Both the position numbers and the translations under genes were made by a program. The notes under the pieces are model-generated. The model was not told where the DNA came from. It saw only the letters and a program-made list of their open reading frames with translations, and searched no databases. A stretch of DNA of 64,000 bases from Candidatus Latescibacterota bacterium. GTDB taxonomy: Bacteria; Latescibacterota; UBA2968; UBA8231. The stretch's first letter is position 1. Every line of letters begins with the position of its first letter. Positions 52,594 through 64,000 of this stretch are shown one piece after another. The stretch is from the NCBI GenBank assembly GCA_965200315.1, contig OZ241362.1, positions 3,552,001 to 3,616,000 of the forward strand, in the 5' to 3' direction.

Positions 52594-54180
52594 ATGGCGC
52601 GCCGCAAGAAAAACGTCCGCAGCGAGATAGAGCGAGCCGCAAACCGCAAAAACCTCCGCAGCCACATCCGCGCCCTCGGTCTCCAATCCGAGGACGAGTA
52701 CCGAGCTTGGTGTCGCAAGCGCGGTTTGGGCGACGGCCTCCACAAGAGCAATCGCCATATCCAAAAGGAGCGCCAGCTCGCACTGCGCCAGCAAGGCGAG
52801 GCCGTGCTCGCCCGCACCCGCCAGCGCACGCGCAGCCCGGCCAACACCATCCGCCAGCTCTACGATCGCACGCTCCCCAAGGGGCGGCTCGGTGCCGACT
52901 ACCTCTACAAGGTTCGCGGTCTCTTCAACGCCTTTCCCAGCGGCCCGGTGCGCCGCGCCTTGCTCGATCTTCTGCTCCAAGCCGTGCGCCGCGCCGACCT
53001 GTTGCGCCTCGACCCCGTCATCCCCGATTTTGGTGCCCATCCGCACAACAACTTCATCGACGGCCTAGCCGCCTTGGCCCGCCATTCAGAAGACTGGGTG
53101 CGCCCCGTGGCCGAGTGGGTGCCGCCGAGCCACAACCCTCGCAAGCAGTTTCACCACCTCGCCTGCCACCTGCTAGCCCGCTATGACGTGCCCGCTTTTA
53201 TGGACGCGGCCTTTTTCACCACGCAGATGCCAGAGGCCGATTTGCACCAGGCGTGGTTCAAACACATCGGCTCGGGGCAAAACATCCGCACCGCCGACCT
53301 GCCCGTCGCCTTGAGCAAGAAGTCGGCCCACTGCTTCCTCGCCGCCCCCAACGACCTCTCCATCGCCCACGCCCTGCGCTGGGGCCAAGTCTTAGGGCAA
53401 GGCGGCAGTCCGACGTTGGCGCGAGCGGTGATTGGCACCCGGCTGGGCCAGTCGTTTGAAAACGAGGACTTTTGGTCCACCGCGATCCTGTTTTTTGCCA
53501 ACAATCCCATGCTCGACCCAGCCCACATCGGCCCCATCGTCGATTTTATTTACAATCAGAAATACGTGCCGCAGCAAATCGTCCTGCCCGGCGGTCGCGT
53601 CGAGCAAGGGCCGCAGCCACAGCCAAACTTCTCGCTGAAGAGCCGCAGCGTTCCCAAGCTGTTGCGCCAAGTTGACGAGTGGCACGAAGCGCTGGCCCGC
53701 GAGGTGCTGCTACCCGATGCAGAGGCCGAGTTGGGCAGAGCTGGTGGCAAAAAGGGGCGCGTCCGGCACATGTCTTGGGGCGCTTCGAGTATCGGCGAGT
53801 TCGAGCAAAAGCAGGAGGACAAGCAACTCGGCGAGACCCTCACTTGGAGCGTAAAGGAGCTGCTCTCCAATCACGAACTGGGAGCCGAGGGCCGCGAAAT
53901 GGGCCACTGCGTCTATACCTACGCCAGGAGTTGCCGCAACGGCAGTACCTCGATCTGGTCCCTCGGCTTAGAGGACGGCAAAGGCCACCGCCACCGCGTC
54001 CTCACCATCGCCGTCGATCCGCGCAGCCGCACCATCACCCAAATCCGCGGCCGCTACAACGTGCTGCCCAACGCCAAAAACAAAAAGAACTTAGAGCGAG
54101 CCTATCAGAAACTGCTGCTCCGTTCTCAGAAGGTGCTCGGGCAGTGGATGAGCCGCGAATTTATCAGCAAGCGCTGCTGA
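52594..54180 (+). CDS. PcfJ-like domain protein
   Basis: C-terminal EL..EG..M.HCV.TY...C..G...IWSL, Q.RG..N. Confidence 0.75.
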   Translation: MARRKKNVRSEIERAANRKNLRSHIRALGLQSEDEYRAWCRKRGLGDGLHKSNRHIQKERQLALRQQGEAVLARTRQRTRSPANTIRQLYDRTLPKGRLGADYLYKVRGLFNAFPSGPVRRALLDLLLQAVRRADLLRLDPVIPDFGAHPHNNFIDGLAALARHSEDWVRPVAEWVPPSHNPRKQFHHLACHLLARYDVPAFMDAAFFTTQMPEADLHQAWFKHIGSGQNIRTADLPVALSKKSAHCFLAAPNDLSIAHALRWGQVLGQGGSPTLARAVIGTRLGQSFENEDFWSTAILFFANNPMLDPAHIGPIVDFIYNQKYVPQQIVLPGGRVEQGPQPQPNFSLKSRSVPKLLRQVDEWHEALAREVLLPDAEAELGRAGGKKGRVRHMSWGASSIGEFEQKQEDKQLGETLTWSVKELLSNHELGAEGREMGHCVYTYARSCRNGSTSIWSLGLEDGKGHRHRVLTIAVDPRSRTITQIRGRYNVLPNAKNKKNLERAYQKLLLRSQKVLGQWMSREFISKRC

Positions 54181-54181
54181 T

Positions 54182-55140
54182 TCAATCCCGCAAGACGGCC
54201 AACGCCTCGGCGACCTCCTGCCCTTTGGCTTCGATAATGTCCATTAGCTCTTCGGGTGTGCGCGTATCCACGACCGGCTTTTTATGAGGATTGACGGCCT
54301 TGAGGTCGTACACCGCATCTTCGATCCGCTTGGCGTCGTTGGCCAGTGCCCTTGCTTCAGCTTTCAACGTCTTGACCTTCGCTTCCGCCTCCTCAATAGC
54401 CTGCTCGTCGCGCGGCTTGGCTTTCTTGAGTTCCCTAAACTGCGCCTTCCACTGAGCCTCCACTTACTCTCCTTGCCGCCAAACGGGGGATTGGTCAGGA
54501 TCACGTCAAAAGCCGGTGGCGCATTGTCGAACAAGCCTCCGTAAATTTCCTGCCCGGTCAAGGTATTGCCGTGCCACAGGCTGGGATCGTCGATGCCATG
54601 CAATACCAGATTGGCCAAAGCGATGGGATAGATGAGGTTTTCCTTTTCCCGGCCATAGAATGTCCGCTGCTTGAGGATGGTCAATTGCTCAGCGGTAGCG
54701 TCGTCCCCCATCCGCTCCCCAATGTGCTCAAAACTCTGGGGCAGAAAGCCGCCGGTGCCGCAGCCGGGGTCGTACACGGTCTCGCCAACGCACGGGTCTA
54801 TCACCTGTACCATCGCTTTGATTACTTGGCGCGGCGTGAAGAACTGCCCGCCGTCGTTGCCCTTCTCGCCCATCTTGAGCAGCAATCCTTCGTAGACCTG
54901 CGAGAGCGCGAAGACATGCGTCGGATCGACTGCCTCGTTAGAGAACTGATGCACTTTATCGAGTACGTCGAGGAAGTTGCGCTCGGTGTCGATTCGGACC
55001 CGCTCGACACCGGTCATAATCTCACTGATGACCTTTTGCCGCGGGGTGGCGTCGGGCACTTCCTTGAGCGCCTTCAGATGCGGCAGTAAGATTCCGTTGA
55101 TGAGTGCCAGAGGAGATCTTTCGGCGTAAGGAGAAATTTG
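54182..55140 (-). pseudogene. hsdM: type I R-M methyltransferase (HsdM) remnants
   Basis: GQFFTPR, DPGCGTGGF, TNPPFGG joined out of frame to C-terminal YDLKAVNP..DTRTPEEL; N-terminus missing. Confidence 0.85.
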
Positions 55141-55144
55141 CAAA

Positions 55145-55336
55145 ATGAACGGTATTACCGCACACTTAGGACAGTTGGACGGATTCATCACCGATGCTCC
55201 TCGTGGCTGGCGCGTCCATCGGCTTTCAGGTGATCGGCAGGGCGAATGGAGCGTTTCGGTATCCGGCAATTGGCGGATCACGTTTGCAGAAGAGAACGGC
55301 TATATCGATCACGTAAACCTGGAGGACTATCACTAA
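55145..55336 (+). CDS. HigB/plasmid-killer type toxin, probably 5'-truncated
   Basis: HRLSGDRQGEWSVSVSGNWRITF...VNLEDYH. Confidence 0.75.
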   Translation: MNGITAHLGQLDGFITDAPRGWRVHRLSGDRQGEWSVSVSGNWRITFAEENGYIDHVNLEDYH

Positions 55337-55641
55337 TGGCTACCGACCCCATCAAGATAAACATGACCCCTTCGCATCCGGGCGACTTCATTCGCACGGA
55401 GGTCATCGAGGAGTTGAGTCTGAGTGTGACAAGGGCAGCCGAGATTTTGGGAGTTCGGCGGGCAACGCTTTCGGACCTGCTGAACGGCAACGCCGCGCTA
55501 TCGCCGGAGATGGCACTGCGCATTGAGAAAGCATTCGGCGTGGGAATGGACATGCTGCTGAGGATGCAGGCTTGGTATGATGCCTCGCAGATGCGCACCC
55601 GTGCAAGCGAGATCAGCATCCGGCGCTATGAACCTGTCTGA
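55336..55641 (+). CDS. higA: HigA family antitoxin
   Basis: HPGDFI, AAEILGV.R.TLS, LSPEMALRIEKAFG, LRMQ..YD. Confidence 0.88.
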   Translation: MATDPIKINMTPSHPGDFIRTEVIEELSLSVTRAAEILGVRRATLSDLLNGNAALSPEMALRIEKAFGVGMDMLLRMQAWYDASQMRTRASEISIRRYEPV

Positions 55642-55675
55642 CCAATGTGGGCAACAAATTAAAAAAGGGGCAGAT

Positions 55676-56092
55676 ATGCCAAGACTCAAGACGTATGATC
55701 TATTTCTGAGCCATGTATGGCGTAGTGCCGAAAATTCCGAATACTACCGCCTTGAGAATCTTCTCTACGAAGCACCGTACTTCTATTGGCGCAATTACTC
55801 AGTTCCAGAGCACGATCCACTGGGAACAAAGACAGATAATGAACTACGTCAAGCACTTGACCGACAAATTGCCCCAGTAAACTGCTTTCTTGTGGTTTCT
55901 GGCATGTACGTGAATCATAGAAAGTGGATTCAGGAAGAGATCAACATCGCCATAGACTACGATAAACCGATTGTTGGCGTTAAGCCTTGGGGTCAAGAAC
56001 GTGTACCGATTGAGGTGCAAAATGCTGTAAAGGAAATGGTTGGTTGGCAAACGAGTAGCATCGTAGATGCTATTCGGAGATGGTCTTTGTAG
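55676..56092 (+). CDS. TIR-like domain protein (ThsB/MTH538/DUF1863 type)
   Basis: YDLFLSH.W, NYSVP, SGMY...KWIQEEI, KPIVGVKPWG. Confidence 0.85.
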   Translation: MPRLKTYDLFLSHVWRSAENSEYYRLENLLYEAPYFYWRNYSVPEHDPLGTKTDNELRQALDRQIAPVNCFLVVSGMYVNHRKWIQEEINIAIDYDKPIVGVKPWGQERVPIEVQNAVKEMVGWQTSSIVDAIRRWSL

Positions 56093-56155
56093 CTAAAAAC
56101 TTGAAAAACCTACGACAGCCCTTGCTACATCATAAGTCGAAAAGGCGGGAAAGAG

Positions 56156-56650
56156 ATGAGCAAAGACAACCTGAATTTGCTGCGCCAGAGTAAAGATGAC
56201 TACGGCACTGAATTTGAGAATCACCTTTTTGACCAGTATAAGCTATATGTCGAAATGGCTGATCGAATCAGTGCACGGCGAATGCTCGCAAACTCGTTTT
56301 TCGTCGGTGTGCATACGACCCTGACTATCGCCTTTACTGTGCTGCTCAAAGAGAAGGTGCTACAGCCTCCCTCGCTTATCTTTGTGCCTTTTGTCTCCTC
56401 GATACTTCTCTGTTATGTGTGGTGGCGCGTCGTGTGTTCGTATCGGCAGCTAAACACGGGTAAGTACAAGGTAGTCCTAGCACTTGAGCAAATGCTACCT
56501 GTTGCTCCGTATGATGCCGAATGGATAGCCTTTGGCGAAGGGAAGGATAGAAAGCTATACCGGCCGCTTACAGATGTAGAAAAGTGGGTGCCGGCATGCT
56601 TTGGTTTGTTGTATGTCTTGTTGGCCGGTATGTTTTACTTCAAGGGATAG
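56156..56650 (+). CDS. small 3-TM membrane protein (resembles RipA/octameric membrane family)
   Basis: QYKLYVEMADRIS.RR..AN.FF, W...SYRQLN.GK..V...E..LP..PY..EW, VEKWVP; three hydrophobic segments. Confidence 0.75.
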   Translation: MSKDNLNLLRQSKDDYGTEFENHLFDQYKLYVEMADRISARRMLANSFFVGVHTTLTIAFTVLLKEKVLQPPSLIFVPFVSSILLCYVWWRVVCSYRQLNTGKYKVVLALEQMLPVAPYDAEWIAFGEGKDRKLYRPLTDVEKWVPACFGLLYVLLAGMFYFKG

Positions 56651-56718
56651 CAAGATGTCGCCAACGGACGGCTGTGAACCTACACTGCTCGCAGCAGACA
56701 CGAAAGGATAGCTGGATT

Positions 56719-57165
56719 ATGAAAGTTTTTATCAGCCATGCCTATACAGATGAGCCGCTTGTCAAGAAAATTGTGGCTAGCCTAGAGGAAGTTGGTCTCG
56801 AAGTATGGGATGCCACCCGCGACGTCCTCCATGAGGCCAATTGGGCCGACGAAGTGGCGCGGGCGTTGGAAGAGTCAAAAGCCATGGTGGTCCTCCTGAC
56901 CGCCGACGCTCTACGTTCAAGTTGGGTACGTCGGGAGATCGAGTATGCTCTTGGCGAACAAAACTATCGCGAACGTCTGATTCCCGTCCTTGCAAGCGAC
57001 CTAGGGGAGCTGAAGAAAGAAGATATTCCATGGATTCTTCGGCGCTTACATATAATTGATATGGGTGAATACGCCAAGGAAGAAGAAGGAATTAGTCAGA
57101 TTGCACAGACACTTCTAGAAAATGATGTCACAAGCTCTCCGCCTCCATCTGCATCAATTGCTTGA
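56719..57165 (+). CDS. TIR_2 domain protein
   Basis: KVFISHA..D, S.WVRREI..AL, LIPVL; AAGGA SD. Confidence 0.88.
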   Translation: MKVFISHAYTDEPLVKKIVASLEEVGLEVWDATRDVLHEANWADEVARALEESKAMVVLLTADALRSSWVRREIEYALGEQNYRERLIPVLASDLGELKKEDIPWILRRLHIIDMGEYAKEEEGISQIAQTLLENDVTSSPPPSASIA

Positions 57166-57168
57166 ATT

Positions 57169-57582
57169 ATGTTGCCAAAGGAAATTTTTCTTTCACATTC
57201 TGACCAAGATCGGCAATTTGTGGAAAGGTTGGTCTCCGTAATGAGGCGGCATGGACTTCCCATCTGGTACAGTCGAACTGATGTACTTGGAGGACAACAA
57301 TGGCATGACGAAATTGGGGAGGCACTTCGGCGCTGCGATTGGTTTGTGCTTGTCTTATCGCCGAGTTCCTTGGAATCCATGTGGGTAAAAAGAGAGATAT
57401 ACTTTGCTCTTAACCAGAACCGCTTTGAAAACAAGATTGTTCCTCTTTTGTACCAACACTGTGCCTACGAGCGACTTTCTTGGACGCTGCACTCCTTTCA
57501 GATGATTGATTTTACACAATCTTTTGAACAGGGGTGTCGCGCCCTCCTACGTGTGTGGGGTTTGGGATACCAAGCAGCGTAA
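57169..57582 (+). CDS. TIR_2 domain protein
   Basis: IFLSHS..D, LVLSP.S..S.WVKREI..AL, IVPLL. Confidence 0.88.
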   Translation: MLPKEIFLSHSDQDRQFVERLVSVMRRHGLPIWYSRTDVLGGQQWHDEIGEALRRCDWFVLVLSPSSLESMWVKREIYFALNQNRFENKIVPLLYQHCAYERLSWTLHSFQMIDFTQSFEQGCRALLRVWGLGYQAA

Positions 57583-57609
57583 TCTCCCAGTTTGATGAGA
57601 ACTTATTCA

Positions 57610-58075
57610 TCACACCTTCCCCGCAAAAGCCTCCCGCAACAGAGCCGACGGCATAGCGTCAATAGCGTCCAACTTTTCTTCCGCTGCCGCTCGCGCCTTC
57701 TCCACTGCTGCCATCTGCTTTTTGAGAATTGCCGCAATTCGCCGCTGCTCTGCAAGCGGCGGGAGAGGAATTTTGCGTTTGAAGAGGTATTCTTGAGGTA
57801 ACCTTTGTTGTCCTACTGAACCAGTGAAATGTTCTGTTGCTTCTAGAAGAACGCTGGGTTGCCGAACGAAGAAGTGTATCCATTCGGCGATTATGTGCTC
57901 GCTTGGGCGGAGAACATGAAACTCCGTCGTGCCAAATCCAATACCATCTAATAAGTCTCGCGCTATCGCGTGTTTTCCGTTCTGCATACAAGGGGTAATT
58001 TTTGCGAAAAGAACATCCCCTTCAACGAAATACGTGTATCCTCTTTTGATCTCACCAAACGGGCGTATGTGTAAC
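57610..58075 (-). pseudogene. hsdS: type I R-M specificity subunit (HsdS) C-terminal half
   Basis: GDVLFAKITPCMQNGK, IPLPPLAEQRRI, LLREAFAG; one TRD only. Confidence 0.8.
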
Positions 58076-58714
58076 TTCGCAGCTCCCAACGGTGATATAC
58101 ACGTCGAAGCCCTCGACGCGAATGATGGTAGGCCCATCGCCGCCTTCGCCGCTGCTGGTGCGCGTTGGACGGCTGGTAAAGTCCTCGCTGAACAGGCGGG
58201 TGGCGTCGGTGTAGTCATAAACGCGGAACATCAGCTTATTGGTCGGTTCATCTATGCGTGTCCCTCGACCTGCTCGCGAGGTATGGGCAAGCCTGTGATA
58301 GCATCTATCGGGTTGCGCTTCATAATGTCGTCTATGGTAAGGCCGGTGTCGTCGAGGTTGACGCGCCCCTTTTGGATTTCGCAGGCGGCCAGATAGCCGT
58401 CCTCAATGCCTTGAACGCTCCATGACGGCGCGAATGGCGGCGTCCTGATAGTAGCGGCGGGTGCCTTCGCCGCCTGAGTAGGGCTGCAATAGAGGGCGAG
58501 CGGCGGGTGATTCGAGGGCAAAACCGATGCCTTGTTCGTACCGGGTACGTAACTCAATCTGGCCGCGCTTGCGACGACCACTGACAGGCTCAACGGCCCC
58601 AGCAGTCTCCTCGCGTCGGATGTGGTCTTCTGTCCAGCCGCGCTTGTGAATGGCCGGATCGATGAGCTTGGCTCTGGTATCGGCTTCGCTGAAGTTCATT
58701 TGTGCCGCGTCCAT
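58076..58714 (-). pseudogene. hsdR: type I R-M restriction subunit (HsdR) stumps
   Basis: SEADTRAKLIDP, RYYQDAAIRAV, QGIEDGYL, KLMFRVYDYTDATRLF pieces spliced together in about 0.64 kb. Confidence 0.8.
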
Positions 58715-58735
58715 TCTGCGCTATCTTGCTCTCGC

Positions 58736-59038
58736 ATGGAAAACACATACTTCGTCCCGACCGACGCCGAGCACATCGCTCGCGAGAAGAACAAGGCCAA
58801 AATGCTGCGCCGCTCCGAGTGGTGGAAGCGCAGACGGGCCGCTGGCCAGTGCCACTACTGCCAGCAGTCGTTTGCCTCCGAGGAACTGACCATGGATCAC
58901 GTGGTGCCCCTCATCCGCGGCGGCCGCACCACCAAATCCAACGTGGTCCCTTGCTGCAAGCACTGCAACAGCCAAAAGCAGCACCGGCTCCCCATCGAAT
59001 GGGCGGCCTATCTAGCGCGGCTGCGCGACGAAAGCTAA
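58736..59038 (+). CDS. HNH endonuclease
   Basis: CHYC, TMDHVVP..RGG, N.V.CCKHCN. Confidence 0.88.
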   Translation: MENTYFVPTDAEHIAREKNKAKMLRRSEWWKRRRAAGQCHYCQQSFASEELTMDHVVPLIRGGRTTKSNVVPCCKHCNSQKQHRLPIEWAAYLARLRDES

Positions 59039-59041
59039 AAG

Positions 59042-59983
59042 CTAGTGATAGTCCACAATGTCAGCTATAGCCGCGGCCACTTCCGCGGCCACTTCCGCCG
59101 GCACTCGCGGATTGAACGGGCCACCCTCGCCGCCATCCACATCGCTGAACCCCCCCAAGTGCATGGTCTCGACCACGGCTGAATAGTTGTACATGCGGCC
59201 ATCGCGGAAGCGAATTCCCTCTAGAGCCGCAAGCTTGTCTTCAATCTGCTGCGACGTCGCAAAATCGCCCCGGCGCTGGGCGTTGTTGAGCTCGTCTGAG
59301 GCGCGAGCAAAGGCCACGTTAATTCCCGACGTATGCCCTTTGGTGCCGCGCTCGGCCGGCCCAGTCGAACGATCTCCCACACCCCAAATCACCAGCGCAG
59401 CCCCTTCTTCCACACCCGCGACAATCGGCTCAACATCCTCGACCGTGGTGCCGATCTTAAGCCCGACGAAGTGCTCGGACTCGTTCATCAGCCGCACGGC
59501 TATGTCGCGCTCGGCTTGGTTGCGCAGGTAGTAGAGCAACTTGGCTCCGCATGAACGCCCCAGCCGCTCGGCGAGGTCGAGGTGATAGGCAAAAATGCCC
59601 TCTGGACTGGCCACGCCGGTAAGCGGCATGACGAGATAGACATCCGGGGGATATTCGAGCGCGGCCTCTCGCTCGATCAACCGCTCGGCATCCCCCACCG
59701 GATTGGGGGCAATCCCGGCCATCAGCACCCCGCGCCGCCCCATCTGCTCGCCGGTAAAGCCCAACAGCCGCACTTGCTCGTCCGCGCTAATGTGGTGGAT
59801 CAAGCTGGTCCCGGCGATGCCAATCACCCGGGGCCGGCCGCCCTCTAGGTGATTTTTTTCCATCAAGTAGTTGATGTTCTTGGCGTGGGCGTCGTAGTCG
59901 ATTTGTCCGCCGCGAAAAGGGACCACCGGGATGGAGGTAACCGAGTTTAGTGCGGCGAGTAGGTCTTCTTTTTGCAATGGCAT
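59042..59983 (-). CDS. DapA/NAL family aldolase/dehydratase
   Basis: IPVVPF..GQID, Schiff-base Lys in VGLKIG, G.TSG. Confidence 0.75.
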   Translation of the reverse strand: MPLQKEDLLAALNSVTSIPVVPFRGGQIDYDAHAKNINYLMEKNHLEGGRPRVIGIAGTSLIHHISADEQVRLLGFTGEQMGRRGVLMAGIAPNPVGDAERLIEREAALEYPPDVYLVMPLTGVASPEGIFAYHLDLAERLGRSCGAKLLYYLRNQAERDIAVRLMNESEHFVGLKIGTTVEDVEPIVAGVEEGAALVIWGVGDRSTGPAERGTKGHTSGINVAFARASDELNNAQRRGDFATSQQIEDKLAALEGIRFRDGRMYNYSAVVETMHLGGFSDVDGGEGGPFNPRVPAEVAAEVAAAIADIVDYH

Positions 59984-60016
59984 ATTTAACCTCAACTGTG
60001 TTAGGTGGTGATGAAT

Positions 60017-61090: not shown

Positions 61091-62260
61091 CTAGCGACCG
61101 ACGATCGGCGGCAGGTTGGTCGCCGGGCAGGCGCGGGGGCCTTGGACTGGATAGCCCATATCCGCGAGGACGCAGTTGATTTGGGCCTCTAGCTTGATCA
61201 GGTACTCCTGTTCGTACGCGCTGCTCGACGCACGCGCTGGGCCTACGTCAAAGCCGCGAGCCGCCACGCCGGTCTTAAAGCCCTCTGGGAAGTTGACCCC
61301 GAGGAGCATCAAGTTGATGAGATCGAGGATGCGGTATTGCAGTTCGCGGGCCCGCTCGATGTCGCCGCTTTTGGCCTTTTCATACAGCTCGACGATCACC
61401 TCCGGGACGATGCCCGAGGTGGCGATGGTCCCCCCACTGGCACCCATGAGCACCGCGGGAAATACGATCTCCTCGCAACCGGTCAGCACCACGTAGTCGG
61501 GGCGCTGTTGGCGCAGGCGGTTCATGGTGTTGAGCAGTCGCGGCAGGTCGCGGCTGGAGTCCTTGGTCCCGCAGAGCCGCTCGTAGGGCAAGAGCCGCTC
61601 CAGCAAATCTATCGACAGCTCTTGGGTAAATCGCGGAATATTACACAGCAGGATGTCCAGCGGCGATTCTTCGGCGATTTCAGCGAAGTACTCGAAGAGG
61701 CTCTCGGTGGAAATCTCGTAGTAATAGGGGGGCATCAGCGCAATGGCATCCACGCCGAGTGAGGCATAGTATTCGGCCATCTTGAGCACGTCGCGCAAGT
61801 TGGCCTCGCCGGCTCCGGCCAGTACGGGTACACGGCCCTTGTTAACCTCGCAGACCAGTCGCACCACGTCTTGGCGCTCCTCCGGCGACAGGCGTGCGAA
61901 CTCGCCCGTGCTGCCGTTGGGGTACAGCCCATGGATCCCGACCTCGATCAGCCAGTTGATGTAGCGCTCCATCTCGGCGTGGTTGATCTCGTTCTGGCGG
62001 TCGAAAAGGACGACATTGGGGCAGAAGATGCCAGCAAATGCCTGGCGGCCGGCGGCGCGAGGCACTGCTGGTGCCGGTGCTGGCGTTGGGGTGGCTTGGC
62101 GGTCAGCCTCCCGGCGGACGATCTCAACGCCTTGGACGCGCAAAAAATCCTGCGCCGAGGGCGTCAGCTTGGACCCCGGGCCGATTTCGACCTCCCGTGC
62201 GCCAGACAGGCGACCCTCCAAGGTCTGAGCGGTAATTACAGCGTCGTCAATCCGAACCAT
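61091..62260 (-). CDS. DapA family aldolase with N-terminal BMC-associated extension
   Basis: NGSTGEF, PYYY, KDSS; N-terminal LTPSAQDFLRVQGVEI segment plus Pro/Ala linker. Confidence 0.85.
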   Translation of the reverse strand: MVRIDDAVITAQTLEGRLSGAREVEIGPGSKLTPSAQDFLRVQGVEIVRREADRQATPTPAPAPAVPRAAGRQAFAGIFCPNVVLFDRQNEINHAEMERYINWLIEVGIHGLYPNGSTGEFARLSPEERQDVVRLVCEVNKGRVPVLAGAGEANLRDVLKMAEYYASLGVDAIALMPPYYYEISTESLFEYFAEIAEESPLDILLCNIPRFTQELSIDLLERLLPYERLCGTKDSSRDLPRLLNTMNRLRQQRPDYVVLTGCEEIVFPAVLMGASGGTIATSGIVPEVIVELYEKAKSGDIERARELQYRILDLINLMLLGVNFPEGFKTGVAARGFDVGPARASSSAYEQEYLIKLEAQINCVLADMGYPVQGPRACPATNLPPIVGR

Positions 62261-62274
62261 TTTTCGAGTCCTCG

Positions 62275-63423
62275 CTAAACGTGCGGCAGGCGGCCTTCGA
62301 GGCCGCTGTAGGGCTGCGGAATGGCGTAGGCCGAGGCCAGCTCTCCGTGGGCGATGGCCTCCTGCCGGCCCGCCTCTATGGCGACCTGCACGGCACCGAC
62401 ATCGCCGCGCACGACGGCGGCCGTCAAGTAGTACCCCACCTTGTAGGCCCCTTCGTATTCGACGGCCGCGGCCTTGAGCATTCGATCCACGGCCCGCACC
62501 AAGGCCACGGTGCTGCGCGTCTCAATCAGCCCCATCGCCTGCCGCGCACCCGAGCCCAAGCCCTCGGCCGCGGTGGCAAAGCGGGCGACTAACGAGGAAT
62601 CGGGCCTAGAGACTACGGCCGAGGCGTCGAGCTCGCCCAAGGCCGTGGCGGCCGCAACACCAGCGCGTACCGCAGCCTGCACATCGTCGAGCTGACCGGT
62701 AGCCAGCGCGGCAATTCGCCCGCCGCTGCCAATGCTCAAGCGCTCGATTTGGACATCCGCAGCCTTGAGCATGGCGTCCGCACTGCCTACGACCGCCGCG
62801 TAACCAATGGTCTCTATGAGGCCCAAGGCACCGGTAGAGCGCGGCGCAGCCGCTGGCGCGGGCGGCAACAGAGGGCCTAGCCCCTCGCTGGGCTGAGGCA
62901 AAACGAGGGTCGCGTACACGGTGCCGATCCGCTCGGCTGCTTGTCGGCCGACTTCTAGCGCCGTCTGCACGGCCGCCACATCGCCAAAAACGGGCGCGTG
63001 ACACAGGGCACCGCCGATGAAGGCCCAACCCCCTAGCTCCACTTGCGCGGCCTTGAGCATGGCGTCGGCACCGGCCACCAGAGGCGTCAGGCCCTGCGTC
63101 TCCAACAGACCAATCGCCCGCGGCTGGACCTGCTCGGCACCGAGGCCGGTCGCATGGGGCATGGCATCCACGGCGCGCGCATCCGGCCGCGGCACCACTT
63201 GTGCGCCAATCAGTTCACCGGTGCGGTTCGCCTCTACCTCGCCAACGCGAATGGCCGCCTCTACATCAGCCACTTGGCCGGCGATTACTGCGGTGAGCCA
63301 ACCCGAGCCAATCCCGTGCCGGCCGCAAAGTCGCACCTCAGCGGCCTTGAGCATGGCATCGGTAGAAGCCATCAGCGACGCCATGCCGCGCGTCTCCAGT
63401 ACACCGATTGCCCCGCTAGACAC
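62275..63423 (-). CDS. BMC shell protein with four tandem BMC domains
   Basis: Four repeats of A(I/L/M)G..ET......D.MLKAA.V...G.V..V..A...P.P. Confidence 0.9.
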   Translation of the reverse strand: MSSGAIGVLETRGMASLMASTDAMLKAAEVRLCGRHGIGSGWLTAVIAGQVADVEAAIRVGEVEANRTGELIGAQVVPRPDARAVDAMPHATGLGAEQVQPRAIGLLETQGLTPLVAGADAMLKAAQVELGGWAFIGGALCHAPVFGDVAAVQTALEVGRQAAERIGTVYATLVLPQPSEGLGPLLPPAPAAAPRSTGALGLIETIGYAAVVGSADAMLKAADVQIERLSIGSGGRIAALATGQLDDVQAAVRAGVAAATALGELDASAVVSRPDSSLVARFATAAEGLGSGARQAMGLIETRSTVALVRAVDRMLKAAAVEYEGAYKVGYYLTAAVVRGDVGAVQVAIEAGRQEAIAHGELASAYAIPQPYSGLEGRLPHV

Positions 63424-64000
63424 CGCCCCCTCCCATCGGCATGGCGTATGCGGCCAAGACCTCGGGCCGCGGCTGTGGGATCAGGGCCGTGCCCAGCAAG
63501 CGCTCGCAGCCCGCGAGCAACTTTTGCGCGACAGCTATGGCTTCGGTGACGGCCCCTATGTCTCCCAAGACCAGCGAACACACCACGCGGTCGTGGACCG
63601 TCAGCACATTGATTACCTCGACGGCAGCCGTCTTGACCATCTGATCGTTCGTGTAAATGTGGGCCCCGTAGCCGCGCGTCTCGACCAACCCTAGGGCACC
63701 AGCGGGAAAGTCGCTGTCGGAGCGGAGCGGAAAATCGACGAAATGACTGCAGGCGGCGGCAGGTTGATGGAGAGGCACGGCCACTACGTGTTCTACCACG
63801 CTGCGGGCCGCTTCTTCACCGCTTTGCAGCGCGGCCGCCACATCGCTGATTGACCCGGTGAAAAAAGCCGTGGTATAGCCGCCGATTGACGCCCAACCCG
63901 CGAGCTTTATGTCCGCGGCCTTGCAGGCCGCATCCGCACCCACAATGGCCGCGGCCACGCCCGCCACCTCGATCATGCCGACTGCCGGGTCGCCCGCCAT
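63416..64000 (-). CDS. BMC shell protein with two BMC domains (may extend beyond window)
   Basis: AVGMIE..DAACKAADI and ALGLVETRG..DQMVKTAAV repeats. Confidence 0.85.
   Translation of the reverse strand: MAGDPAVGMIEVAGVAAAIVGADAACKAADIKLAGWASIGGYTTAFFTGSISDVAAALQSGEEAARSVVEHVVAVPLHQPAAACSHFVDFPLRSDSDFPAGALGLVETRGYGAHIYTNDQMVKTAAVEVINVLTVHDRVVCSLVLGDIGAVTEAIAVAQKLLAGCERLLGTALIPQPRPEVLAAYAMPMGGGGV

Follow-up and report, generated by a model that had tools for sequence, protein, structure and literature searches.

Gene organization and domain composition

Two overlapping genes for bacterial microcompartment (BMC) shell proteins lie at the end of a 64,000-nucleotide stretch of Candidatus Latescibacterota DNA (the window), which comprises bases 3552001-3616000 of a single 5.36-Mb contig. 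The sequence was also read past the window edge. One gene encodes a four-domain protein of 382 amino acids, here named Q4, and the other a two-domain protein of 194 amino acids, here named T194 (Table 1). In Pfam searches Q4 gave four PF00936 stretches (251.5 bits, E = 3.8e-76), the best of which spans positions 1-75 of the 75-position profile, and T194 gave two (105.8 bits, E = 1.1e-30); both scores exceed the gathering cut-off of 24.5 bits. A local hidden Markov model (HMM) of the BMC domain placed the domains at residues 4-88, 102-184, 198-281 and 295-378 of Q4 (D1 to D4) and at residues 6-85 and 101-185 of T194 (T1 and T2). The Q4 domains are non-permuted, as indicated by the in-register Pfam match and by the secondary-structure order in an AlphaFold2 model, which is canonical in each domain. 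Pairwise identity among the four Q4 domains of the window is 36-46%, and the T194 domains share 19-36% identity with each of the further BMC domains of the operon. Both proteins score under the NCBIfam cut-offs for PduT and CcmO.

The T194 start codon lies exactly at window base 64000 and opens a frame of 195 codons, and the gene upstream ends 3 nucleotides before this start, so that T194 is complete and has exactly two domains. Its stop codon and the start codon of Q4 overlap within an 8-nucleotide stretch. A purine-rich Shine-Dalgarno stretch of the GGGAGG type is found at 63426-63434 and ends 3 nucleotides 5' of the Q4 GTG. A reading of the window from its sequence only (the sequence-only reading) had described four complete, mutually divergent BMC domains in Q4, a start codon overlapping the stop of a BMC gene, and two domains in that upstream gene. 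All three features held.

The pair is part of an operon with the order acylating aldehyde dehydrogenase (AldDH), BMC-P, PduL-type phosphotransacylase (PTAC), 186-residue tandem BMC protein, 87-residue BMC-H, 142-residue protein, T194 and Q4, in which the genes upstream of T194 lie beyond the window. A DHDPS-family aldolase, a DAO-family oxidoreductase and a second DHDPS-like protein follow 3' of Q4 inside the window. Intergenic gaps within the operon range from -8 to 37 nucleotides.

Table 1. Coordinates and defining properties of the shell protein pair, its pore loops, the neighbouring operon genes and the three-domain proteins found elsewhere (window positions unless a locus or protein identifier is given; aa, amino acids; ORF, open reading frame).
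Feature	Position	Strand	Basis or property
Q4, four-domain BMC shell protein, 382 aa, GTG start	62275..63423	-	ORF and four PF00936 stretches
Q4 domain D1	63160-63414	-	BMC-domain HMM
Q4 domain D2	62872-63120	-	BMC-domain HMM
Q4 domain D3	62581-62832	-	BMC-domain HMM
Q4 domain D4	62290-62541	-	BMC-domain HMM
T194, two-domain BMC shell protein, 194 aa, ATG start	63416..64000	-	ORF and two PF00936 stretches
T194 domain T1	63746-63985	-	BMC-domain HMM
T194 domain T2	63446-63700	-	BMC-domain HMM
Gene junction T194/Q4	63416..63434	-	Stop TAG 63418-63416, start GTG 63423-63421
D1 pore loop			Conserved Ser-Gly-Trp tip
D2 pore loop			Conserved Gly-Gly-Ala-Leu
D3 pore loop			Conserved Ser-Gly-Gly-Arg
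D4 pore loop			Conserved Lys-Val-Gly-Tyr-Phe/Tyr
T1 pore loop			Conserved Gly-Gly-Phe/Tyr
T2 pore loop			Conserved His-Asn/Asp-Arg
DHDPS/N-acetylneuraminate-lyase-family class I aldolase, 389 aa	61091..62260	-	PF00701 over aa 75-361
FAD-dependent oxidoreductase, DAO family, 357 aa	60017..61090	-	PF01266, E 3e-56
Second, divergent DHDPS-family protein, 317 aa, last operon gene	59042..59995	-	PF00701, E 1.5e-7
142-aa protein, 5' of T194, beyond window	L012:6004-6432	-	ORF
Three-domain BMC proteins, about 283-330 aa	P0255, P0257-P0264, P0274, P0283, P0303, P0318, P0322		

Conservation and co-occurrence of the gene pair

Homologues of Q4 form at least 120 clusters at 90% identity. They are 285-404 amino acids long, mostly full length, and extend down to 55% identity; the named ones are labelled as Gemmatimonadota or Latescibacterota metagenome-assembled genomes. 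Since the same layout recurs in other genomes down to 46% identity, the four-plus-two-domain architecture is, judged by its recurrence, far beyond chance.

The distribution of the two genes was surveyed in 168 genomes of the window's phylum with thresholds of E <= 1e-40 for Q4 and E <= 1e-30 for T194. Q4 was found in 83 genomes and T194 in 84, and the two lists are identical except for genome G096, whose assembly is 85% complete and has about 980 contigs; there the T194 match (query residues 6-160) is cut at a contig end. The coordinates of both genes are adjacent in every genome listed, and T194 is present in 83/83 of the genomes that carry Q4. A second set of 20 loci, composed of 14 distant loci, five loci from the phylum survey and the window's own, was annotated with the local BMC-domain HMM and by blastp against the operon proteins; here T194 lies directly 5' of Q4 in 20/20 cases. 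A separate scan of a species-representative genome collection, which partly overlaps with the genomes of the 20-locus set, yielded 77 loci, and T194 is directly 5' of Q4 in 76 of them. The contig of the 77th begins inside Q4, which leaves 76/76 assessable loci. The spacing is tight as well, with the T194 stop codon located -2 to 27 nucleotides from the first residue of D1 in 75 of the 76 loci. The sequence-only reading had proposed the co-occurrence of four- and two-domain genes as a check, and a Q4 gene lacking T194 turned up in none of the 76 assessable loci and none of the 83 phylum genomes.

The aldolase gene lies directly 3' of Q4 in 72 of 75 assessable loci. In 15 loci (L090, L093-L098, L100-L106, L112) T194, Q4 and the aldolase form an isolated trio within about 7 kb; these satellite cassettes belong to one genus-level group. 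Four of the satellite genomes (G045, G053, G054 and G056) contain eight BMC domains each, which are the six of the pair and two encoded by single-domain genes that lie far from the trio and about 6.5 kb apart. These genomes thus have no tandem BMC protein besides T194 that could close a ring with Q4.

Some longer sequences had the appearance of fusions of the two genes and were rejected. P0241, a long match to T194, is a frameshifted read-through, and P0242 is a four-domain protein of 389 amino acids that by eye is a Q4 homologue. Open frames of 480-791 codons in the phylum survey were out-of-frame overlaps of both genes.

Six distinct domain identities

A phylogenetic tree was calculated for 155 BMC domains from 20 loci. 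Each of the six positions, D1 to D4 and T1 to T2, forms its own clade with SH-aLRT support of 96-100. The deeper branching is unsettled, and one join was flagged as a possible long-branch attraction.

The pore loops and edges were compared in alignments of 73 Q4 and 85 T194 sequences. The loops are near-invariant within each position and different between positions (Table 1). Charged loop residues are conserved, with Arg in D3 and T2, Lys in D4 and His in D1, D2 and T2, in addition to the aromatic residues. The six different pore residues anticipated by the sequence-only reading thus correspond to six distinct, individually conserved pore loops. In each of the six domains the edge motif Asp-x-x-x-Lys shows little or no variation, being kept in 72-73 of 73 Q4 sequences and 85/85 T194 sequences. 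Its lysine corresponds to Lys-26 of PduA, which the available text of the PduA work describes as the edge lysine for tile-to-tile contact (PMC4139245). From the alignment, Arg predominates at the position of PduA Arg-79, a residue whose role we take from the same partly available source (PMC4139245), only in D1 and D3, and the other four positions mostly have Gln. Six fixed pore loops together with the edge motifs are as expected if the domains always hold the same six places in a tile, and conservation of all six edges is as expected if every edge contacts neighbouring tiles.

Structure prediction

AlphaFold2 modelling of Q4 alone, with an alignment, gave a mean predicted local distance difference test score (pLDDT) of 91.3 and a predicted template modelling score (pTM) of 0.90, which makes the relative placement of the four domains confident. 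The best Foldseek matches of this model are chains of 6NER, with target-normalised template modelling scores of 0.88-0.91 over about 180 columns. As pairs of Q4 domains superpose on 6NER, neighbouring Q4 domains are predicted to be placed like ring neighbours. By sequence 6NER is also the best match among solved structures (E = 5.3e-34), and PduT chains match both by sequence (E about 1e-13 to 1e-15) and by fold. No chain with more than two BMC domains was present among the solved-structure matches of the sequence and fold searches. The linkers between the Q4 domains are similar in length, with 13-14 residues between the HMM domain bounds. The linker between D2 and D3 is conserved and rich in proline, and its two 10-residue blocks average pLDDT values of 86 and 90, versus 79 and 65 and 74 and 81 for the other two linkers.

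For the 1:1 complex of Q4 and T194, three runs gave ipSAE values of 0.81, 0.78 and 0.81, versus a best value of 0.00 in three controls. In calibration, 58 of 80 solved complexes and 2 of 110 mismatched pairs attained this mark. The runs have at least 94% of their contacts in common, and the partner pLDDT is at least 88. In the model, residues 6-93 of Q4 (D1) contact residues 110-143 (T2) and the tail residues 188-193 of T194, and residues 303-360 of Q4 (D4) contact residues 7-87 of T194 (T1); residue 137 of Q4, in the D2 pore loop, reaches T194 as well. Read relative to the domains, D4 and T2 offer their first-helix side and T1 and D1 their beta-sheet side. T194 is thus modelled as a bridge between D4 and D1, which would give one closed head-to-tail ring, D1-D2-D3-D4-T1-T2. 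The 1:1 heterodimeric tile that had been proposed from the sequence is thereby favoured by the complex model, in which the contacts close a single ring, and the other computational checks agree with it.

A proposed six-domain heterodimeric tile and alternative assemblies

We consider it likely that Q4 and T194 assemble 1:1 into one six-domain pseudohexameric tile with a fully asymmetric pore. The novelty would then most likely lie in how the subunits of a shell tile are built. The two proteins, translated from the overlapping genes, would join into the closed ring described above, which would have no internal symmetry. Because all six outer edges keep the Asp/Lys motif, the tile would sit in the shell facets beside the tiles formed by the BMC-H and the tandem BMC protein of the operon. 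The central pore would be lined by six different loops that include Trp, Tyr/Phe, two Arg, Lys and His. Six different, conserved loops point to a single chiral pore that is probably positively charged, in contrast to known tiles, whose pores have three- or six-fold symmetry. A narrow, cationic and asymmetric pore would suit anionic metabolites, for example pyruvate, an acyl phosphate or a keto-deoxy sugar acid. Since the pair almost always travels with the DHDPS-family aldolase, the tile probably serves this enzyme, either as a conduit for an anionic substrate or product or as a docking site present once per tile. This association is the sole clue to function; docking, instead of or besides a pore role, could involve the asymmetric concave face. 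The stoichiometry in the cell, the place of the tile in the shell and its role in transport or docking are our inferences.

Covariation of protein distances offers independent, though softer, evidence. Distance correlations were determined with the AldDH and PTAC distances removed by regression, for 32 non-redundant loci of the 51 that have all ten proteins. The partial correlation between Q4 and T194 was 0.61, the highest of 28 operon protein pairs. The next values were all 0.39, for Q4 with the 186-residue tandem protein, for the 142-residue protein with the DAO oxidoreductase and for BMC-H with BMC-P, and other adjacent-gene pairs had correlations of about 0.3.

The positions that Q4 leaves in a ring could also be filled by two BMC-H chains, by the 186-residue tandem protein or promiscuously, with T194 forming an ordinary BMC-T homotrimer. 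The operon does encode the 87-residue BMC-H and the tandem protein besides the pair, complex models built with related members of the family tend likewise to pass, and the available text of PMC6788708 reports hetero-hexamers of BMC-H paralogues for CcmK3/CcmK4. The correlation of Q4 with the tandem protein is, moreover, among those tied in second place. We nevertheless regard this arrangement as unlikely, because T194 was never apart from Q4 in 76/76 loci and 83/83 genomes, its pore loops and interface surfaces are near-invariant, and the correlation of the pair is the highest of the 28 compared. The four satellite-type genomes checked retain T194 and Q4 but lack the 186-residue tandem protein. 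A different arrangement follows from counting domains: three Q4 chains have twelve, enough for two rings, so that the D1-D2 and D3-D4 halves might reside in two pseudohexamers, either in rings that are linked or stacked or in a cross-linked sheet, with Q4 as a covalent tie between tiles. Double trimers that stack do occur in the permuted BMC-T(dp) class, according to the available part of Sutter et al. 2021 (PMC8217296), but the Q4 domains are canonical and not of the stacking permuted type. The D2-D3 linker is no longer than the other two and is the most confidently modelled, and the pTM of 0.90 points to one rigid four-domain body. As an obligate two-domain partner would also be left unexplained, we think that a division of Q4 over two tiles is quite improbable. 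The smallest chance is given to a pair that is not a facet tile at all and re-uses BMC domains, for example as an internal scaffold or an assembly cap for aldolase cargo. The tight aldolase linkage (72/75 loci) would agree with such a role, as would the N-terminal domain that the aldolase and the 142-residue protein, whose genes flank the pair, have in common. The invariance or near-invariance of all six edge motifs, which mediate tile-to-tile contacts, makes it very improbable.

Several points count against the 1:1 tile. The correlation of 0.61 between Q4 and T194 is given without a significance test, and adjacent genes can share history. The ipSAE score of the complex is the model's own confidence; since many BMC hexamers and trimers have been solved, the pass may stem from resemblance to known rings and not from any specificity of Q4 for T194. 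The complex model covers the pairing of Q4 with T194 only, and close cousins of true partners pass too. Identities within the window alone hinted at descent from an (ab)x3 tandem trimer, but no clean alternating pattern of this type was found in class-averaged identities, profile-profile scores or the tree, and the origin of the six domains cannot be read from the tree or the profile comparisons. No genuine six-domain fusion occurs among the best 120 Q4 homologues (285-404 amino acids), and a search for longer T194 homologues gave two matches, neither of them a fusion. There are also two irregular loci. L117 has a T194-Q4 spacer of 190 nucleotides, the sole exception among the 76 loci, and in L132 the four-domain gene is split 3+1 into a three-domain reading frame of 302 amino acids and a one-domain frame of 86 amino acids; the split may be genuine or stem from a frameshift or an assembly error.

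The operon and its enzymes

Together with its part beyond the window, the operon makes up a complete metabolosome locus. Its AldDH is an acylating enzyme of the PRK15398 type (NCBIfam 647 bits, cut-off 403), and the BMC-P, an EutN/CcmL vertex protein (PF03319), is encoded in the same operon as AldDH and the PduL-type PTAC. The pyruvate-dependent class I aldolase is the likely candidate for the signature enzyme of the operon. Its gene starts 14 nucleotides 3' of Q4 and encodes an N-terminal extension of about 75 amino acids; all its NCBIfam matches are under their cut-offs. The DAO oxidoreductase gene follows with a gap of 0 nucleotides, and its product is ThiO-like in NCBIfam but also under the cut-off. 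The second DHDPS-family gene is kept at the same position in most main loci.

Beyond the window the operon is adjoined by a divergently placed FAA-hydrolase-family gene (L012:9839-10642, + strand), whose best NCBIfam match is 2,4-didehydro-3-deoxy-L-rhamnonate hydrolase (226 bits, cut-off 500). Close by is a rhamnose-mutarotase-like gene (L012:10646-10966, - strand). These neighbours hint at a non-phosphorylated route of deoxy-sugar-acid catabolism in the organelle.

The 142-residue protein encoded 5' of T194 is present in all main loci with 30-89% identity. Its middle part is rich in Cys and His and may hold a metal or iron-sulfur site. Residues 2-52 of the aldolase (window 62105-62257, - strand) are homologous to its N-terminus, with 31% identity over 51 residues and a pairwise E of 4e-6, so that genes sharing an N-terminal domain of about 50 residues flank the T194-Q4 pair. 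Neither the 142-residue protein nor the aldolase extension has a Pfam match at E up to 10, and the 142-residue protein has no match in NCBIfam. A protein-atlas comparison gave scores of at most 0.85, with a weak lead to EutQ at rank 17 (score 0.78). The shared domain may serve in shell docking or encapsulation.

Elsewhere in the same genome we noted a triplet of vertex-protein (PF03319) genes (G000:C1:1128376-1129171) and two further BMC-domain genes (G000:C1:2267743-2267970 and G000:C1:403636-403812). Directly 3' of the operon, at window positions 54001-59038, the G+C content falls to 0.48-0.55, and an HNH endonuclease reading frame at 58622-59038 (+ strand) borders the operon. This stretch may be a mobile or defence island.

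Three-domain proteins and wider implications

A scan of 1.84 billion representative proteins returned many matches of about 283-330 amino acids. Three PF00936 stretches were found in 14 of the 26 Pfam-scanned representatives outside the Q4 family (Table 1), and named members with three domains are labelled Elusimicrobiota and Ca. Calescamantes. One metagenome contig carries two three-domain genes (L135:13-885 and L135:889-1830, both on the + strand) that are 3 nucleotides apart and encode proteins of 37% identity. It is possible that their products form a 3+3 heterodimeric tile. Adjacent genes with BMC domains that sum to six, as 3+3 or 4+2, may thus be a wider phenomenon. The Q4 family is common in one phylum, occurring in about half of the sampled genomes, and together with the 3+3 pair elsewhere this suggests that the arrangement is no isolated oddity. 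A broader proposal, which we put forward tentatively and which may well prove too general, is that heteromeric asymmetric six-domain tiles (4+2 here, 3+3 in other phyla) are a general, overlooked class that would combine a chiral pore with a docking face present once per tile. In the operon described here, the cationic pore would be tuned to the sugar-acid or pyruvate traffic of the aldolase and the face would bind the N-terminal domain of about 50 residues.

To our knowledge, the hexagonal tiles described so far consist of six single-domain or three two-domain chains and have six- or three-fold pores. If the proposal for Q4 and T194 is true, it would be the first natural tile whose pore lacks all symmetry and whose six edges are non-equivalent. 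This would bear on the selective transport of larger or charged metabolites through the shell, on the anchoring of cargo at a defined stoichiometry and on the evolution of tiles via duplication and fusion. It would also be a natural template for engineering in which one pore residue or edge can be changed without changing symmetry mates, something that now needs synthetic fusions such as 6NER.

Comparison with known shell proteins

Full-text literature searches and the available text of PMC8217296, PMC4207490 and PMC4454575 gave no mention of BMC proteins with three or four domains; the supplementary tables of the 2021 catalogue (PMC8217296) may list the locus type. In the available text of that catalogue, hexagonal tiles are BMC-H hexamers or trimers of two-domain BMC-T proteins, standard and permuted (PMC8217296). 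One close likeness is to the BMC-T(s) proteins such as PduT and CcmO, in which canonical, non-permuted PF00936 domains are likewise fused head to tail with six domains per tile, and T194 by itself has this two-domain layout. BMC-T(s) proteins are described there as having two domains per chain and forming homotrimers with three-fold pores (PMC8217296), whereas Q4 has four domains and a different two-domain partner. With its four domains Q4 falls outside BMC-T as so defined, and since a four-domain chain would need a different two-domain chain, the resulting tile would be a heterodimer without symmetry. The permuted classes (BMC-Hp, BMC-Tsp and BMC-Tdp) differ from Q4 in their circularly permuted domain order; the order in Q4 is canonical.

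The 6NER protein, a synthetic tandem BMC-H fusion from the Haliangium ochraceum shell, resembles the modelled Q4 in that neighbouring domains of one chain are adjacent in one ring. It is, however, engineered, with two identical domains per chain in a homotrimer, whereas Q4 is natural and has four different domains.

Satellite loci of the EUT-module type, as described in the available part of Sutter et al. 2021 (PMC8217296), combine an enzyme with its own tile module, similar to the T194-Q4-aldolase trio in the 15 loci mentioned above. The tile in those satellites is an ordinary two-domain BMC-T and not a 4+2 pair (PMC8217296).

The CcmK3-CcmK4 hetero-hexamers of beta-carboxysomes provide a precedent for two gene products, often encoded side by side, that together line a mixed pore, as far as the available text of PMC6788708 shows. 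The CcmK3 and CcmK4 subunits are single-domain proteins, whereas both Q4 and T194 are multi-domain. Because of the single-domain subunits, neither order nor stoichiometry is hard-wired in the CcmK3-CcmK4 hexamers, whereas in the proposed 4+2 tile both would be.

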